IMG/VR virus record: IMGVR_UViG_2695420822_000015
Length of the DNA stretch: 10,688 nt
DNA from: a virus
Taxonomy: Duplodnaviria > Heunggongvirae > Uroviricota > Caudoviricetes
Strand: one strand, 5' to 3'
The notes beneath the pieces were generated by a model. It did not search any database. It was not told the DNA's origin and saw nothing but the letters and a program-made list of their open reading frames with translations. This document shows, one piece after another, positions 2,871-10,538 of this stretch. The translations under genes were made by a program, and so were the position numbers. Every line of letters begins with the position of its first letter. Positions within the stretch are counted from its first letter, which is position 1.

Positions 2871-3935
2871 ATGGCTAACGCCTGGCTCAGATTATGGCAT
2901 GACATGCCAAATGACCCTAAGTGGCGAACAATTGCCAGGGTGTCAGGGCAGCCAATTGCAACAGTGATGGCAGTGTATATCCACCTCCTGGTGAGCGCGT
3001 CACGAAATGTCACGCGAGGTCACATTGATGTCACGACAGAAGATTTGGCAAGTGCGCTCGACGTGACAGAAGAGGTAATTGATTCAATTTTGCAGACGAT
3101 GCAGGGGCGGGTACTTGATGGTGATTTAATCACTGGATGGGAAAAACGCCAGGTGCTTAAAGAGGACAACGGCAATATTTCGCAAACCGCAAAATCTCCT
3201 GCAGAGCGCAAGAGGGCGCAGCGAGAGAGGGAAAGAAAGCGGGAACAAAATGGCGATTGTCACGGCGCGTCACGAAATGTCACGCACATGTCACGACGAG
3301 TCACGACAGATACAGATAAAGATACAGATAAAGAAGATCAAAACACTATGGTCCATGGCGTAAAAAACGCCACGAACCAGGCAGGGGATGTTCAGACCGT
3401 CAATCCTGGTCAGCCAGCAGGCTCGACACCGGAAGCCGATTCAGCGTATGCGCTGAAAGCCGATTCGGGCGCTGTGCAGCAGGTGATGACCGCAAGGCCG
3501 GAGCAATCACTCCAACTGCAGCAGCCTGAAGCCGATTCCGCCATTCAGCGGGAAGCCGATCGGGTAGCCCCGGAAAACACCGGGCAGCCTGTGGGACGAG
3601 TGGATTATCCGGATGTGTTCGAACAGGTCTGGCGGGAATACCCGTTGCGTGCCGGGGCAAACCCGAAGAAATCCGCATTCAGTGCCTGGAAGGCCAGATT
3701 GCGCGAGGGGGTGCCACCAGAGACCATGCTGGATGGTGTGAGGCGTTACGCGAGATACCTGGCGGCGACCGGGAAAGCGGGAACGGAATTTGTTCAGCGA
3801 GCGACGACGTTTTTTGGGCCGGACCGGAATTTTGAAAACCCCTGGTTGCTCCCGGTAAGCGGCACGAACAACCAGCGTTGTGTGAATCATATTTCTGAAC
3901 CGGATACCGAAATTCCGCCGGGATTCAGGGGGTGA
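2871..3935 (+). CDS. Phage replication initiator / replisome organiser (lambda O-like, YdaU-like)
   Basis: Lies directly upstream of the dnaC-like gene. Contains iteron clusters in its coding sequence, as lambda O contains ori. Low-complexity acidic/Pro/Gln-rich linker in the middle. SD GAGG 5 nt before ATG 2871 (track start GTG 2865). Confidence 0.7.
   Translation: MANAWLRLWHDMPNDPKWRTIARVSGQPIATVMAVYIHLLVSASRNVTRGHIDVTTEDLASALDVTEEVIDSILQTMQGRVLDGDLITGWEKRQVLKEDNGNISQTAKSPAERKRAQRERERKREQNGDCHGASRNVTHMSRRVTTDTDKDTDKEDQNTMVHGVKNATNQAGDVQTVNPGQPAGSTPEADSAYALKADSGAVQQVMTARPEQSLQLQQPEADSAIQREADRVAPENTGQPVGRVDYPDVFEQVWREYPLRAGANPKKSAFSAWKARLREGVPPETMLDGVRRYARYLAATGKAGTEFVQRATTFFGPDRNFENPWLLPVSGTNNQRCVNHISEPDTEIPPGFRG
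2999..3035. repeat. Iteron cluster 1: four GTCACG/GTCACA copies phased about 10 bp apart
   Basis: GTCACG at 2999, 3009, 3030 and GTCACA at 3019; an inverted copy CGTGAC at 3062-3067. Helical-turn phasing. Confidence 0.5.
3259..3332. repeat. Iteron cluster 2 (five GTCACG copies) plus 12-bp tandem repeat; candidate phage origin
   Basis: GTCACG at 3259, 3269, 3279, 3290, 3300 (spacing 10-11 bp). The 19-mer GCGTCACGAAATGTCACGC occurs at both 2997-3015 and 3268-3286. Immediately followed by perfect tandem GATACAGATAAA x2 (3309-3332), an A+T-rich patch. Confidence 0.55.
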
Positions 3936-3941
3936 TGTGGC

Positions 3942-4719
3942 ATGAAAAACATTGCGGCAGCCGGGGTTCTTGAACGTATTCACAGACTTGCACCACAGGG
4001 GGCGGTTCCACCGTACCGGACGGTGGAGGAGTGGCGGGGGNNNNNNNNNNNNNNNNNNNNNNNNNNNNGAATGGCAACTTGCTGAAGGACGAAAACGCAG
4101 CGAGGAGATTAACCGCCAGAATCGCCAGTTGCGGGTGGAAAAAATCCTGAATCGTTCGGGCATCCAGCCTCTGCACAGCAAATGCTCGTTTGCGAATTAT
4201 CAGGTGCAGAACGACGGGCAAAAATACGCGCTGAGCCAGGCCAAATCCATAGCTGACGAACTGATGACCGGGTGCACGAATTTTGTGTTCAGCGGTAAAA
4301 CCGGCACCGGGAAAAATCACCTTGCAGCGGCGATGGGTAACCGGCTGATGGCGAAGGGGCGCAGCGTGATTATCGTCACCGAGTCTGATGTCATGAGCGT
4401 GTTGCATGACAGCTACGACAACGGCAAATCCGGTGAAAAATTTTTACAGGAGCTTTGTGGTGTTGACCTGCTGGTCCTGGATGAAATTGGCATGCAGCGG
4501 GATACGAAAAACGAGCAGGTGGTACTGAACCAGATTGTTGATCGCCGGACGGCATCGTTACGCGGTGTGGGGATGCTGACAAATATTAACCATGCAGCGA
4601 TGAATACACTTCTCGGCGAGCGGGTGATGGATCGCATGGTCATGAACGGCGGGCGCTGGGTGAATTTTAACTGGGAGAGCTGGCGTCCGAATGTTAGCCA
4701 TTCGAGGGTTGTTAAGTAG
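3942..4719 (+). CDS. DnaC-like helicase loader (phage replication protein, AAA+/IstB-like), interrupted by assembly gap
   Basis: Walker A FSGKTGTGKNHLAAA, Walker B DLLVLDEIG; C-terminal LGERVMDRM closely resembles E. coli DnaC. ATG 3942 (MKNIAAAGVLERIHRL...) lies 6 nt after the O-like stop. The track's TTG 3952 start is in another frame and is an artefact of the 28-N gap. Confidence 0.8.
4041..4068. other. Assembly gap (28 N) inside the dnaC-like gene
   Basis: Run of N; gap length is not a multiple of 3, so the reading frame across it is undefined. Confidence 0.95.
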
Positions 4720-4750: not shown

Positions 4751-5154
4751 ATCACTTAGCGGCAGCTATCGGGAATCGCCTGCTGAAAGACGGTCAGACA
4801 GTGATTGTGGTTACCGTGGCTGATGTTATGAGCGCCCTGCACGCCAGCTATGACGACGGGCAGTCAGGCGAAAAATTTTTGCGGGAGCTGTGCGAAGTGG
4901 ATCTGCTGGTTCTTGATGAAATTGGCATTCAGCGCGAGACGAAAAACGAGCAGGTGGTGCTGCACCAGATTGTTGATCGCCGGACAGCGTCGATGCGCAG
5001 CGTGGGGATGCTGACAAACCTGAACTATGAGGTGATGAAAACATTGCTCGGCGAGCGGGTGATGGATCGCATGGTCATGAACGGCGGGCGCTGGGTGAAT
5101 TTTAACTGGGAGAGCTGGCGTCCGAATGTTAGCCATTCGAGGGTTGTTAAGTAG
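4751..5154 (+). pseudogene. Second, 5'-truncated copy of the dnaC-like 3' region (fragment; likely chimeric join)
   Basis: Starts in-frame at ..NHLAAAIGNRLLKDGQ.. right after a single N (4750) that interrupts the start of the downstream gene (ATGGCGAAACCTTTTA, 4735-4749). Segment 4610-4749 is identical to 5045-5184. Confidence 0.6.
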
Positions 5155-5168
5155 TTTCAGGAGGATTT

Positions 5169-5353
5169 ATGGCGAAACCTTTTACTCCCGAACAGCGGGA
5201 AGAACTGAAGACGCGAATTGTGGAACTCGTGCATCAGGACGGTCGGGTCACGATTCGGCAGTTGTCAGATGAAACAGGTATCAGTCGTGCGTCTGTCGGT
5301 CGCTTATGCATAGAACTGGTCGCAAGTGGTGATGTATATAATTCTGGCTACGG
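5169..5353 (+). CDS. Hypothetical winged-helix-like protein, 5' portion only (truncated at N 5354)
   Basis: RBS AGGAGGA then ATG 5169 (MAKPFTPEQREELKTRIVELV...GISRASVGRLCIELVASGDVYNSGY). Reading frame is broken at the N junction, where sequence switches into a dnaC fragment. Confidence 0.5.
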
Positions 5354-5354
5354 N

Positions 5355-5599
5355 TCCTGGATGAAATAGGCATTCAGCGGGAGACGAAAAACGAGCAGGT
5401 GGTATTGCACCAGATAATTGATCGCCGGACAGCATCACTGTGCAGTGTCGGGATGTTAACAAACCTGAATCATGCCGCAATGAGCACGCTTCTTGGTGAG
5501 AGGATTATGGACCGCATGACCATGAACGGTTGTCGGTGGGTGACGTTTAACTGGGATAGCTGGCGTTCAAATGTCAGCTTTCCGGGAGTTGTGAAGTAA
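5355..5599 (+). pseudogene. Third, 5'-truncated dnaC-like 3' fragment (divergent allele)
   Basis: Encodes ..LDEIGIQRETKNEQVVLHQIIDRRTASLCSVGMLTNLNHAAMSTLLGERIMDRMTMNGCRWVTFNWDSWRSNVSFPGVVK*. Begins immediately after N 5354. C-terminus differs from copies 1 and 2. Confidence 0.6.
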
Positions 5600-5620
5600 T
5601 TTTTGTTGGAGGATGTTTTA

Positions 5621-6346
5621 ATGGAAACTGTATTTGACGCACTGAAAGCACTGAAAAGAGCCTCTTCACATGTGGTGGCGTCCCGCCTTGGAATCAGCCG
5701 TGAAGATGCGGTCAACGAACTGTGGAAACTGAAGCGCCGTGGTGAAGCGGATAACAAGGGTTCGATGTGGTGGCTGATTCAGGCTGGTGAAAGTGAACCA
5801 GTGTCACCGGTACCGAAAGTGACAGCGCAAATGCTGACTGAGGCGATTGAACAACATGGCCCACAAACGGCGGATGAGCTGGCACTGATGTTCGGGATTA
5901 CCTCCCGCCGGGCGAATTCATCGCTGGCCATGGCAATCAGCAAAGGGCGTCTGATTCGCGTGAATCAGGGCGGTAAATTTCGGTACTGCATACCGGGCGC
6001 TGATTTACCGGCAGAGCCGAAAGCCGCATCCATAGCGGAAACGGATGGTAAAGTCTTTCCTCAGCCAGCAGGTGTTGCGTTACCGGTACAGGAAGCTGCA
6101 ACACAGGAAGAAATTAAAACAGAAACTGTGGCGGACATTGTGCAGTCGTTGCCATCGTTCACCGAAACGCAAGCGGATGACCTGGTTTTACCATCGCTGC
6201 ATATGGCAAACCGCGAACTGCGTCGGGCGAAAAGTCATGTCCAGAAGTGGGAGCGTGTCTGCGCCGCGTTGCGGGAGCTGAACAAGCACCGGGATATTGT
6301 TCGACAGATTGTCGATTCCTCCGGTCGTATTGTGTCGGAAAAGTGA
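5621..6346 (+). CDS. Hypothetical phage protein with two putative winged-helix-like segments (241 aa)
   Basis: GGAGGA SD 7 nt upstream of ATG 5621 (track start TTG 5603 is in the same frame). Follows the third dnaC fragment. Segments [22 protein letters not shown] and [31 protein letters not shown] resemble the wHTH of the neighbouring gene family. Confidence 0.6.
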
Positions 6347-6611: not shown

Positions 6612-6998
6612 ATTAAAGGGCAGGTTGTTGAACTTGTACGTCTGAGCGGTCGCGAGACGTTGCGGCAACTGGAAGCCAAGACAGGTGCGACAAGATATCT
6701 GATGAGTGTTCTCGCCAGAGAGCTGGTTGCCAGTGGCGATGTATACAACTCTGGTTACGGGTTATTCCCGTCTGAACAGGCGCGTAAGGACTGGCAAAAC
6801 GCCCGCAAAAAACTCTCAAGGGCAAATCTGAAGAAACCATCTGTGGTTGATCCTGACCTTATCTGGTCATTACCAGACGGAGAAATACGCCGCTACGACA
6901 GGCGTCAAAACATAATCTGTAGCGAGTGCCGGAAGAGTGAAGTTATGCAGCGTGTACCGGCTTTCTATCAGGGTGATTTTCAGGAGGCGGTACTGTGA
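6612..6998 (+). CDS. Hypothetical winged-helix-like protein, 3' portion (5' end lost at gap/junction)
   Basis: In-frame IKGQVVELVRLSGRETLRQLEAKTGATRYLMSVLARELVASGDVYNSGYGLFPSEQARKDW...QGDFQEAVL*. Overlaps the pre-gap copy by about 32 aa with substitutions (Q to L, I to M), so the two pieces are different alleles. In-frame stop at 6591-6593 upstream. Confidence 0.5.
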   Translation: MKGQVVELVRLSGRETLRQLEAKTGATRYLMSVLARELVASGDVYNSGYGLFPSEQARKDWQNARKKLSRANLKKPSVVDPDLIWSLPDGEIRRYDRRQNIICSECRKSEVMQRVPAFYQGDFQEAVL

Positions 6999-7626: not shown

Positions 7627-9459
7627 ATGGCCCGCATGTTTGATACATTAGGATTTTACATTATGAATGTGCAACATTTTGATTTTTTTACAGATAATGA
7701 GTTTTCTAATCTGGAAAGATATCAAACTTGTAAAGCCATGGCCAAAGGTTATGCGGGCAATTACAAAACCGGGCAGTCAAGGTTGATGCATGCCCGCTCA
7801 TACTGCTTCAGCATCGTAGCTGCATATTGGGATACCCTTGCAAAAAAGCAAAAAAGCAGCATTAAAATGAGGGCAGTACCGCACACTGTTTACATAGAAG
7901 ACATTCCATGTGATGCACGCGAGCTCGCTGAACGAACAGGTGAGCTTATTGCTCAATTTCCGGCGGAGGACGCTGGATATCTGATTGGGTCAATTTATAC
8001 GGTAATGCTGCCATCCGCTTACCGTTCGGAATTGGGGGCTTACTATACCCCCCCACCTTTGGTAGCGCGTCTCTTGGACCTGGCTGAAAAGTCTGGTGTT
8101 GATTTTTCTCATGCATCGGTTATTGATCCTGCGTGTGGTGGCGGTGCATTTTTGGCACCAGTAGCCATTCGAATGTTAAAAAAAGACAAGGGGCCTTCCC
8201 CTGAATGGATGTTGAGGAGAATCAGTCGTCGTTTAAAGGGGATAGAAATCGATCCATTTGCGGCTTGGATGAGTTTGGTATTGCTCGAATCTGTACTAAT
8301 GCCACTATGTGTAAAGGTAAAACGTAGATTGCCTGAAGATACAATTATTGTTGCTGATGCGCTTCAGCAAGATAAATTTTCTGGTTATGATCTTGTGGTA
8401 GGGAATCCGCCTTACGGACGTGTCACTCTCGATATTAAAACGAGAGAAAAATATTCTCGTTCGTTATTTGGTCATGCAAATCTATATGGATTGTTCACCG
8501 ACTTAGCTGTTCGCATGGTTAAAGAGAAAACAGGAGTTATTGCATTTCTTACGCCAACTTCTTTTCTTGGTGGGCAGTATTTCACCGCGCTGCGAACCCT
8601 TTTGACCGAAAAAACTACTCCGTATGCCCTTGATTTCGTCACTGACAGGGATGGGGTCTTTGACGATGTTCTCCAGGAAACAATGTTGACAGCATTCAAG
8701 GCGGGAGAACATAAAGTTCGGGCCCAGGTATCCTCACTTGTCCCTAAGGGGTTGAACAAAGCAAAAATTGAGAAAATAGGTAATGTTGATATAGAAAAAG
8801 GTGGAGCAACGTGGCTTTTGCCACGCGTTAAAGATGATGCCTGTTTTCTTAATGTATTAAAACAGATGTCTACGCGTTTAGCTGATCTGGGATACTCAGT
8901 CTCTACAGGTCAGTTAGTCTGGAATCGATTTAAGTCGCAGTTGCGTACGACGAAAGGAAAAAATAGCTACCCATTAGTCTGGGCGGAATCAATAACTTCA
9001 GCTGGTTTTCGTTTTAGTGCAGACAGAAAAAATCATGTTCCCTATATCGATATAACCCCACAACAGGGTTTCCTTGTGACAAAATCTGAATGTGTGCTTG
9101 TTCAGCGGACAACATCGAAGGAACAGGACAGAAGGATTTTAGCGGCAATTTTACCTCAGGGATTTATAGATGAAACTGGTGGCGTAGTAGTTGAAAACCA
9201 TATTAATATTGTATATTCAAACGGATTGTTCTCTGCGGTTCGCCCTGATGTTATTGATATGCTACTTAATTCGCATGTTGTCGATCGGGCGTTCAGGTGT
9301 ATAAGCGGAAGTGTTGCTGTTTCGGCCTATGAATTGAATTCAATCCCGTTGCCTTCTCTGGAGCAGGTGATGGAGATTCAATCGTTAATTGATGCTGGCG
9401 TCCACAGACGGATTATTGAGAGAACTATCGCTGGTTTCTATGGAGTGATGATTGCATGA
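7627..9459 (+). CDS. N6-adenine DNA methyltransferase, gamma class (Eco57I/TaqI-like motif order)
   Basis: Motif X GAYYTPPPLVARLLDL, motif I IDPACGGGAFL (SAM binding), motif IV VVGNPPYG, in the order X-I-IV. About 130-aa N-terminal extension and about 280-aa C-terminal region (presumed target recognition). AT-rich codon usage. Start could be ATG 7627, 7636 or 7663. Confidence 0.85.
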   Translation: MARMFDTLGFYIMNVQHFDFFTDNEFSNLERYQTCKAMAKGYAGNYKTGQSRLMHARSYCFSIVAAYWDTLAKKQKSSIKMRAVPHTVYIEDIPCDARELAERTGELIAQFPAEDAGYLIGSIYTVMLPSAYRSELGAYYTPPPLVARLLDLAEKSGVDFSHASVIDPACGGGAFLAPVAIRMLKKDKGPSPEWMLRRISRRLKGIEIDPFAAWMSLVLLESVLMPLCVKVKRRLPEDTIIVADALQQDKFSGYDLVVGNPPYGRVTLDIKTREKYSRSLFGHANLYGLFTDLAVRMVKEKTGVIAFLTPTSFLGGQYFTALRTLLTEKTTPYALDFVTDRDGVFDDVLQETMLTAFKAGEHKVRAQVSSLVPKGLNKAKIEKIGNVDIEKGGATWLLPRVKDDACFLNVLKQMSTRLADLGYSVSTGQLVWNRFKSQLRTTKGKNSYPLVWAESITSAGFRFSADRKNHVPYIDITPQQGFLVTKSECVLVQRTTSKEQDRRILAAILPQGFIDETGGVVVENHINIVYSNGLFSAVRPDVIDMLLNSHVVDRAFRCISGSVAVSAYELNSIPLPSLEQVMEIQSLIDAGVHRRIIERTIAGFYGVMIA

Positions 9460-10538
9460 ATCTGCCTGTTGTTCCCCCATTGAATGTTATCCGGGAAAGA
9501 TTACAATTAATTTTCCCTGAAGGGACTGAGAATCGTGGATATTTAATTCGGGAAATAGCTGCAAAAACAATTTTTGTCATGTTTTATGCTGGTGCGGTTG
9601 AGGGGCTGGGGCGATGGATAAGGCCCAGCCAGGTTGTAAGTATGGGAGATTCGCAGGCTGCTCTTACTGATGATGCGTCCAGAGAAAGCTGGGTAAAGAT
9701 GACTTTCTCTAAACAAAAGATAAGGCCTGCTGATGCATGGTATGCGGAAAATACGCGTGAGCCAATACGTGATGAAACTATAAAAAATGGCCTAATACCT
9801 TGCAATGCAATTGTTGAGCGTAAAGGTATACCCACCACATCCTCTCGTCCTCGTTACAGTTTGAATCGCTCTTTTGCAGCACTCTTTGATGCCGGGCTTG
9901 AAGGAGATTCGCTGCTGAGTGCAATAAGTTCCTGGCAAGAAAATCATTTGAACAAAGCCGCTCTTGCTAGGTTGCGTTTATTGAAATCAGGGGCAGTGAT
10001 TGCTGCTGATGCCGTAGTCGTCACTTTCCCAAATGGAGAGAAGAGAACTTTAGCTCCGGGCCCGTCAAGTACAATAGCTAAGGCCGTCATCGAAGTTTTT
10101 GCTCCTAATTTTCTTAAGAATCCAACTGTGCTCTGGTTGTCTGAATCCGGGAATAAAGTTGTTGCTCAGGATGATGTATTGGCAAAAGCATTGGGGCTGA
10201 ATATTGATGCCTCAAAAGCACTTCCAGATATTATTTTGATTGATTTGGGAGAGGACCGAACGGGTTCGGACATGCTTGTAGTTTTCACTGAAGTAGTTGC
10301 GACAGATGGGCCTATAAACAGGGAACGAAAAGTTACTCTCACTCATTTGGCTATTGACGCTGGGTTCAGCGAGAAAAATCTTGCATTCCTTACGGCATTT
10401 ATGGACAGAAGTGCTCTGCCTTTTAAAAAGGCAATACCAGAATTGGCGTGGGGATCTTATGCATGGTTTGCTTCTGAACCGGAGCACTTAATTGATCTTC
10501 GGGATGGTTATCCGGTAAAGATCAGCCAGAGAAAATGA
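9456..10538 (+). CDS. MTase-coupled partner protein (360 aa); putative restriction endonuclease or other effector, family unassigned
   Basis: ATG overlaps the MTase stop (ATGA 9456-9459); GGAG about 10 nt upstream. Same AT-rich composition as the MTase. No Walker motif, HNH or clear PD-(D/E)xK triad identified by eye; candidate acidic cluster IDLGED...FTEVV. Confidence 0.55.
   Translation: MNLPVVPPLNVIRERLQLIFPEGTENRGYLIREIAAKTIFVMFYAGAVEGLGRWIRPSQVVSMGDSQAALTDDASRESWVKMTFSKQKIRPADAWYAENTREPIRDETIKNGLIPCNAIVERKGIPTTSSRPRYSLNRSFAALFDAGLEGDSLLSAISSWQENHLNKAALARLRLLKSGAVIAADAVVVTFPNGEKRTLAPGPSSTIAKAVIEVFAPNFLKNPTVLWLSESGNKVVAQDDVLAKALGLNIDASKALPDIILIDLGEDRTGSDMLVVFTEVVATDGPINRERKVTLTHLAIDAGFSEKNLAFLTAFMDRSALPFKKAIPELAWGSYAWFASEPEHLIDLRDGYPVKISQRK

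Follow-up and report, generated by a model that had tools for sequence, protein, structure and literature searches.

The iterons of the bacteriophage lambda replication origin are ~19 bp long and have internal dyad symmetry. This origin (ori) lies in the middle of gene O and has four iterons with an A+T-rich tract on one side, and Stx-phage variants have six iterons (PMC7466680). The N-terminal part of the O protein sets the origin and the C-terminal part sets the helicase-loading partner, and additional iterons lengthen the protein (PMC7466680). In phage SPP1, the replisome organizer G38P (gp38) binds direct repeats of oriL within its own gene 38, beside an A+T-rich unwinding element, and the loader and helicase genes lie downstream (PMC6316719). 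Here we describe a locus with some of these characteristics in a 10,688-nucleotide (nt) stretch of DNA (hereafter the window) from the virus record IMGVR_UViG_2695420822_000015, an integrated lambdoid prophage of Escherichia coli. An initiator gene on its plus strand (positions 2871-3935; 354 amino acids), named as a "phage replisome organizer," carries two arrays, A and B, of short iterons with the core GTCACG. We consider it probable that this region is the replication origin of the prophage, located inside the gene of its own predicted origin-binding protein.

The locus resembles lambda ori in its mid-gene position, in the succession of a direct-repeat array and a one-sided A+T-rich tract, and in the modular logic of N- and C-terminal protein domains. 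In contrast to lambda, the initiator is analogous to O, not homologous, and the iterons have an asymmetric core of only 6-7 bp that recurs every 10-11 bp, compared with the four much longer iterons of lambda. Also unlike lambda, a second array is present ~230-260 bp upstream, in the region coding for the DNA-binding domain, and the partner encoded in the window is DnaC-like and not a P protein. With SPP1 the locus shares an array in the organizer's own gene beside an unwinding-prone tract, the protein name used by NCBI, and a DnaD-like fold of the N-domain. However, sequence kinship with the SPP1 system is weak, with no Pfam match and only marginal PHROG matches. Furthermore, the second origin of SPP1 is 13 kb away, whereas the second array described here is in the same gene, and the C-domain is DnaT-like.

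The Rac prophage of E. coli K-12 has an active origin, oriJ, which has been used for plasmids (PMC3945230). Its activity is credited to Potrykus et al. 2000, as cited in PMC11014345. The ydaU-ydaV region of Rac has the same gene order as the window (repressor, Cro-like, YdaT-like, initiator, DnaC-like loader), and the two loaders are 74% identical. YdaU shares with the window initiator a C-terminal tail (...PD..IPPGFRG) and a ...TNKDTDKD tract, and has its own direct repeats before that tract. In contrast, the N-domain of YdaU (DUF1376) is unrelated, and alignment is confined to the C-terminal tail and a short stretch of the linker. In the ydaU linker of K-12 (L067:3972-4063), we observed four copies of approximately CAGATGTTCAA or AAGCAGATGTTCAA, spaced by 33, 33, and 12 nt and followed by the tract coding for TNKDTDKD. 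We found no sequence-level map position for oriJ, and these repeats may mark it, on the same plan with a different N-domain.

Related combinations of domains are known from other systems. In the host DnaT-DnaC pair, DnaT has a C-terminal domain homologous to the C-domain of the initiator, which is likewise encoded directly 5' of a DnaC-like gene. Unlike the initiator, DnaT has no origin-binding domain, and the model of full-length DnaT is not matched. DopC is a chimera of an O-like helix-turn-helix (HTH) N-domain and DnaT_C, and no iterons were found at dopC (PMC5509034). Its HTH plus DnaT_C architecture is the same, but iterons are the main feature of the locus described here. Since the work on lambda it has been clear that an initiator gene can contain its own origin, and the advance here, if confirmed, would be one of breadth and detail, not of concept. 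Although the principle is classical, the family-wide conservation, the switching between word classes, the bipartite arrangement, and the frequency among E. coli prophages make this a clean system that can be tested directly. We found no description of an origin of this design in the searchable literature, which is weak evidence of novelty since few subscription journals were covered.

Two arrays of phased words and a low-stability tract

On the plus strand of the window, GTCACG begins at positions 2999, 3009, 3030, 3259, 3269, 3279, 3290, and 3300, and the variant GTCACA begins at 3019. These nine words make up array A (2999-3035; GTCACG, GTCACG, GTCACA, GTCACG at spacings of 10, 10, and 11 bp) and array B (3259-3305; five GTCACG at spacings of 10, 10, 11, and 10 bp). 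The arrays are linked by a 19-bp exact direct repeat, GCGTCACGAAATGTCACGC, which contains two iterons plus spacer and is present on the plus strand at 2997-3015 and again at 3267-3285. Behind array B is a perfect 12-bp tandem, AGATACAGATAA x2 (3308-3331, plus strand), in a patch of 35% G+C. The original prediction, made from the letters of this stretch, had listed nine GTCACG or GTCACA copies in two clusters with 10-11 bp spacing, a 19-bp repeat linking them, and a 12-bp tandem in an A+T-rich patch after the second cluster, and each of these features was found where it had been placed.

The number of GTCACG words in the window as a whole is mildly unusual (10 versus 3.75 expected; 2 of 200 shuffles reach 10). 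Their clustering is beyond chance, with 0.108 sites expected per 307 bp and a Poisson probability of ~5e-15 for nine or more. The sole further GTCACG in the remaining 10.4 kb of the window is at 5247. A lone inverted copy (3062-3067, minus strand) is located 27 nt 3' of array A, where the codons specify D-V-T. Many homologues of the GTCACG class have such a copy at gene nt 192 (or 180), a conservation that may be of the DNA or of the protein.

Mean spacing within arrays A and B is 10.25-10.33 bp, or about one turn of B-DNA, and therefore the iterons of each array lie on the same side of the helix. The earlier proposal that all sites occupy one helix face thus holds within each array. It does not extend to the relationship between the arrays, for which we make no claim, since the A-to-B distances in homologous loci (188-340 nt) show no preferred value modulo 10.5.

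The nine words start at codon positions 3, 1, 2, and 1 in array A and 2, 3, 1, 3, and 1 in array B, and are translated as CHG, ASR, or VT. Because three reading frames are used, this is a repeat of DNA and not of peptide. The peptide ASRNVT does occur twice (amino acids 43-48 and 134-139), but its duplication is a by-product of the 19-bp DNA repeat. We also compared the gene with synonymous-codon shuffles, in which protein sequence and codon usage are preserved. Nine pairs of identical 6-mers at distances of 10 or 11 nt are present in the gene, whereas 300 shuffles gave a mean of 0.83 and a maximum of 8. When 16 homologues were shuffled in the same way, 13 exceeded every shuffle (14 of 17 with the window gene). 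The frames and this excess together rule out the explanation by a peptide repeat. The sequence had been predicted to be under dual constraint because the repeats are translated into a recurring SRNVT peptide, and of this view the constraint is upheld while the peptide is incidental.

An A+T-rich and purine-rich tract (3306-3338, plus strand), which encodes the peptide DTDKDTDK and includes the 12-bp tandem, directly follows array B and is our proposed DNA unwinding element. Of all 31-mers in the gene, the one at 3308-3338 has the lowest stability (dG of -33.0, versus a whole-window mean of -41.9 and a standard deviation of 3.5). The same arrangement is common among homologous loci. Array B is present in 50 gene sets, window included, and in 40 of these the 31-mer of lowest stability begins between -5 and +25 nt from the end of this array. 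Averaged over the 50 sets, the 40 nt 3' of array B are 65% A+T, compared with 44% for the gene, and 73% purine, compared with 57%. The tract of homologues is usually built of tandem GATAAA, GATACA, or GAGAAG units.

The position of this tract helps to discriminate between an origin and a set of operators. The arrays might be regulatory sites, bound by the organizer or by some other DNA-binding protein of the phage, that serve autoregulation, block transcription, or titrate the initiator for copy control or for the exclusion of related phages. Such a role would suit array A, which is in the 5' part of the gene and has no easily melted tract adjoining it. Titration or cross-talk is also plausible given that as many as five copies of the module are present per E. 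coli genome, and the sites of iteron plasmids are often used for initiation and control alike. However, array B is directly followed by the least stable tract in 40 of 50 gene sets, a pairing that marks an origin rather than an operator. Moreover, the context is that of a replication module, in which loader and helicase genes are swapped around a constant N-domain and its iterons. We regard the regulatory explanation as unlikely, although regulation and origin function are not mutually exclusive.

A third element of the origin is tentatively suggested by an imperfect inverted repeat at 3349-3379, 44 nt 3' of array B, whose 13-nt arms are complementary at 11 of 13 positions around the loop AAAAA. 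On the minus strand it has a terminator-like score. A G+C-rich hairpin often follows the tract in homologues, whereas the window has only the imperfect inverted repeat there. In 20 of 49 homologues, versus ~8.9 expected, the longest perfect hairpin in the gene begins 10-110 nt 3' of array B. In a sliding-window test of folding energy, a conserved hairpin after the purine tract ranked first in 6 of 49 loci, which is about the frequency expected by chance. The inverted repeat is the sole notable item among internal promoters and terminators, whose counts are no higher than in shuffles. A search for DnaA boxes near the arrays, allowing up to one mismatch, found none, a result that is neutral for the origin reading, and no Rfam family matched anywhere in the window.

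The stretch from 3340 to 3400 that codes for NTMVHGVKNATNQ overlaps the inverted repeat. We observed this stretch at 92-93% DNA identity beside unrelated N-domains (hits H46 and H47; proteins P0033 and P0044). At this junction between modules, it may serve as a common DNA element or code for a short protein motif.

Conservation and variation across homologous loci

To place the arrays in a wider context, 65 homologous loci were collected by protein homology alone, with N-domain identities of 34-97%; the first iteron played no part in their selection. The loci come from Enterobacterales, Pseudomonas, Aeromonas-like sources, Bordetella, Acidovorax, Stenotrophomonas, Chromobacterium, Sphingomonas, and metagenome-assembled genomes (MAGs) of Acidobacteria. 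In most of them GTCACG is again the commonest 6-mer of the gene, and it is rare in the 4-5 kb flanks. Most homologues have one array at gene nt ~117-160, typically with spacings of 10, 10, and 11, and a second at ~350-430. Some lineages use an alternative word (GTAACG, CGAACG(C)/GGAACGC, or GTGACG) at the same two places.

A search that assumed no particular motif recovered a periodic 5-mer common to regions A and B in 44 of 61 loci. Maps of fixed words revealed no gene in which the two regions hold periodic arrays of different words; a partial exception is L046, where one CGAACG is found beside two GTGACG in region B. By the same fixed-word approach, array B was found in 50 of 62 gene sets, window included, and some loci carry array B alone. 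A comparison of iteron number across relatives, suggested when the repeats were first noted, shows that two arrays are kept in most loci and that the number of iterons differs. Close relatives have 4 or 6 iterons in array A and 5 or 6 in array B, with 1.5-3.5 units in the tandem.

The degree of constraint on the words is evident from codon positions that are otherwise free to change. Third codon positions within the first iteron keep 1.4-1.7 bits, whereas four-fold degenerate sites in the rest of the conserved N-domain have reached saturation (0.0-0.6 bits). The iteron core is 6-7 nt long and asymmetric, consisting of GTCACG followed by C or A, and the spacer of 3-4 nt is weakly constrained.

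Three loci from Stenotrophomonas, Lysobacter, and Dyella (L060, L062, and L063, respectively) have the upstream array in a different position, at gene nt ~56-104, which corresponds to another loop of the N-domain. There the array adds eight residues between helices 2 and 3, and its word and spacing are unchanged. In L062 the upstream array is inverted relative to array B. This location suggests that the auxiliary array was placed independently in these Xanthomonadales loci. In two further loci, L045 (a Serratia MAG) and L058 (Pantoea), both arrays are absent. Their genes encode 396 and 434 amino acids, and at gene nt ~330-500 there is a different segment after the N-domain, with peptides such as YVYYVATTDGDVVRVGISRNP.

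An alternative explanation for these patterns is that the repeats are a neutral by-product, either of slippage-prone, low-complexity coding sequence in permissive loops or of a recombination hotspot at a module junction. The variation in iteron and tandem copy number among close relatives is in line with this idea, as is the break in homology with O157-type genes right behind the tandem, at ~3335. A relative with an additional iteron is, moreover, annotated as frameshifted. This relative (L071:1510-2557, E. coli SCU-104) differs from the O157 copy L069 by one more 10-nt iteron and one fewer tandem unit, for a net change of -2 nt; it apparently shows iteron slippage inactivating the gene, a cost of the dual constraint. 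Neutral slippage is nevertheless disfavored because it predicts neither the invariance of the 6-bp core in lineages with saturated synonymous sites, nor the use of three reading frames, nor the presence of the same word in arrays A and B of each gene, nor the Xanthomonadales array that keeps its word and spacing in another protein loop. The excess over synonymous shuffles also speaks against it, and we consider the neutral explanation very unlikely.

The initiator protein, module exchange, and proposed origin function

The best PHROG match of the protein encoded at 2871-3935 is phrog_3729, "replication initiation protein," which aligns end to end (E = 3e-250). Weak matches were obtained with two families that are both annotated "replisome organizer," phrog_4880 (2.4e-5) and phrog_5968 (4.2e-4), and the other PHROG matches are to DnaD-like, primosomal, or replisome-organizer families. 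A Pfam search at E <= 0.01 returned no family, and hence no O-family match. Homology to lambda O is ruled out on this basis. The label "replication protein O" that some database records carry for the gene is annotation only.

The protein consists of a winged-helix N-domain (amino acids 1 to ~95), a basic helix (110-127), a disordered linker (129-241), and a C-domain resembling that of DnaT (~245-354). In an AlphaFold2 model, in which the mean predicted local distance difference test (pLDDT) score is 55 and folded domains score 70-88, the N-domain comprises helices 3-11, 16-25, and 29-45, a low-confidence loop (46-55), helices 56-63 and 67-77, and a beta hairpin. The basic helix, the disorder, and a helical C-domain follow. 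The N-domain fold is a winged helix that resembles the N-domain of DnaD and those of plasmid initiators. A family profile (positions 214-316) matches the DnaT C-terminal domain in structures 6aep (E = 5.6e-9), 2ru8 (4.8e-7), and 9zbt (1.2e-6), and the region of similarity includes the tail SEPDxxIPPGFRG. When the full-length DnaT model NF002770 was used, the initiator scored 18.1 bits against a cut-off of 201, and the last 24 residues alone aligned.

Array A codes for the end of helix 29-45 and the low-confidence loop that follows it, and array B with the tandem codes for amino acids 130-155, within the disordered linker. The insertions and deletions of the family alignment fall exactly at these two regions. 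Given the location in a loop and a linker and the indels found there, the arrays sit where the protein tolerates change. The idea that the peptide of the array A loop itself reads the iteron is disfavored, since the loop sequence is unrelated in L059 and L040, yet their array B still consists of GTCACG.

The N-terminal 475 nt of the gene, to ~3335 just past the tandem, are present in 2256 of 5426 complete E. coli genomes (~40%), with up to five copies each. O157-type genes diverge from the window at this point. The O157:H7 version has a different C-domain (Pfam PF17948, DnaT-like), which is followed by a lambda-P-like gene. Phage Tritos and strain SBF22 have the same full-length organizer gene as the window, but the next gene is a DUF977 gene. 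Across distant loci, the downstream gene encodes a lambda-P-like protein in 18 cases and a DnaC/IstB-like protein in 5. Another 4 loci have a DnaB-like helicase and 1 has a Toprim-DnaB fusion, and the remaining partners are unique or unassigned. Because the C-domain and the partner gene are swapped in this manner, the winged-helix N-domain is the only product always linked to the iterons.

Phage Tritos is 97% identical to this region, and its complete genome has no GTCAC arrays other than the two in the organizer gene. At least 120 viral contigs contain GTCACG three times at 10-bp spacing, and the N-domain signature is located upstream on the same strand in 83 of 120. Among the other 37 contigs, tblastn identified N-domain homology in 7 (E < 1e-8) plus a single 19-residue match at 5e-4. 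Several of the leftover contigs have iterons and a purine tract in other open reading frames (ORFs), and a few have them between genes. Temperate phages that infect Pseudomonas, Aeromonas, or Ralstonia also carry the module, as do those of many uncultured hosts.

Type II and III plasmid centromeres are arrays of direct repeats of ~10-12 bp. Short direct repeats spaced by one helical turn are typical of such centromeres, and the arrays might thus constitute a centromere-like or packaging-type site that is bound by a small DNA-binding protein. However, no partition nucleoside triphosphatase (NTPase) or terminase gene was found near the arrays, and the element is an integrated lambdoid prophage. 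The arrays instead accompany a replication-initiator gene and a tract prone to unwinding, and we consider a partition or packaging site extremely improbable.

The proposal of a candidate origin built like lambda ori gains strong comparative support from the two-array layout in most of ~60 homologues, the agreement of words between arrays, the tract after array B, and the linkage to the N-domain. Apart from the SRNVT peptide, two of its parts need revision. Calling the initiator "O-like" is apt as an analogy with lambda O, but not as a statement of homology, given the Pfam result and the DnaT-like C-domain. The two clusters are also not equivalent. Cluster B alone abuts the low-stability tract and is nearly universal in the family, and cluster A appears to be accessory and is missing or relocated in some relatives. 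The best reading of the sequence data is that array B and the tract at 3306-3338 would form the origin core, with array A as an auxiliary site.

Several observations weigh against the assignment of this region as an origin. Iterons are not universal in the family, as 12 of 62 gene sets lack a recognizable fixed-word array B. The A+T-rich tract is short and just moderately A+T-rich (~65%). Array A is without an adjoining low-stability tract. The model of the initiator is of low overall confidence, as its mean pLDDT indicates, and the loader gene of this chromosomal copy has a masked gap, such that the element could be defective. Finally, the searchable literature, in which few subscription journals are represented, yielded no experiments in which binding, unwinding, or autonomous replication was studied for members of this family.

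From the features described above, we infer a pathway of initiator binding, melting, loader recruitment, and origin firing. The organizer gene would be transcribed as part of the early rightward operon, 3' of the Cro-like and YdaT/CII-like genes, to give the replisome organizer. Its winged-helix N-domain would bind the 6-7-bp core GTCACG(C/A), and a protein filament or oligomer would assemble on array B (3259-3305). This complex would strain and melt the adjoining tandem tract (3306-3338), which is rich in A+T and purines. DnaT binds single-stranded DNA through its C-terminal domain, and the DnaT-like C-domain of the organizer may engage the opened DNA, the DnaC/YdaV-like loader, or both, after which the loader would deliver host DnaB. 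Array A (2999-3035), ~230-260 bp upstream, might act as an auxiliary array in cooperative loading, looping, or regulation.

A more far-reaching possibility, which we hold to be doubtful at present, is that these loci represent a distinct and widespread class of bipartite phage origins. Members of such a class would have two phased arrays of 6-7-bp words ~200-300 bp apart in permissive loops of the initiator. The upstream array would be required for architecture or control, for instance if the same initiator looped or handcuffed the DNA, and specificity would switch among GTCACG, GTAACG, and CGAACG.

If the origin is confirmed, this locus would contain the module for origin and specificity in a replication system that ~40% of complete E. 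coli genomes carry, several O157:H7 prophages included. Origins of this type could then be annotated by a simple rule, which is two phased xxxACG(C) arrays followed by a purine-rich tandem. The word classes would offer natural specificity classes for examining the co-evolution of initiator and iterons under coding constraint. Replication cross-talk or interference is predicted among co-resident prophages with the same iterons; since up to five of them have the N-domain and iterons in common, the induction of one could cause the origins of the rest to fire or to be titrated.

Loader gene and prophage context

The gene after the initiator (3942-4719, plus strand) encodes a DnaC/YdaV-like helicase loader that matches IstB_IS21, phrog_50, and NF009043 (441 bits) and is presumably the partner of the initiator C-domain. 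Its N-terminus, MKNIAAAGVLERIHRLAP, matches that of Rac YdaV. A run of N at 4022-4068 masks part of the gene and shifts the apparent frame; the true start is the ATG at 3942. A separate ORF of 117 amino acids (4801-5154) matches the C-terminal half only of the IstB/DnaC profile, which suggests a partial duplication or rearrangement of the loader.

The 5' neighbors of the initiator gene encode a CI-like repressor, a Cro-like HTH protein, and a YdaT/CII-like protein. The DNA is ~97% identical to that of temperate E. coli phages such as Tritos and Evi. Pieces of DUF977 are found among 5169-5369, 5603-6346, and 6660-6998, one N-terminal (profile positions 1-60) and one C-terminal (30-134), with a DUF1627 gene between them. 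In Tritos and SBF22, the DUF977 gene directly 3' of the organizer gene is intact.

Farther downstream, an A+T-rich block (7627-10538) contains a gene for an N6-adenine methyltransferase of the Eco57I/N6_Mtase type (7627-9459) and, overlapping it, one for a BsuBI/PstI-family restriction endonuclease (9456-10538). This block looks like a restriction-modification cargo module of the prophage early region. On the minus strand, genes for a ParE-family toxin (998-1288) and a PaaA2-type antitoxin (1288-1482) occupy 998-1482 and adjoin the CI-like repressor gene.

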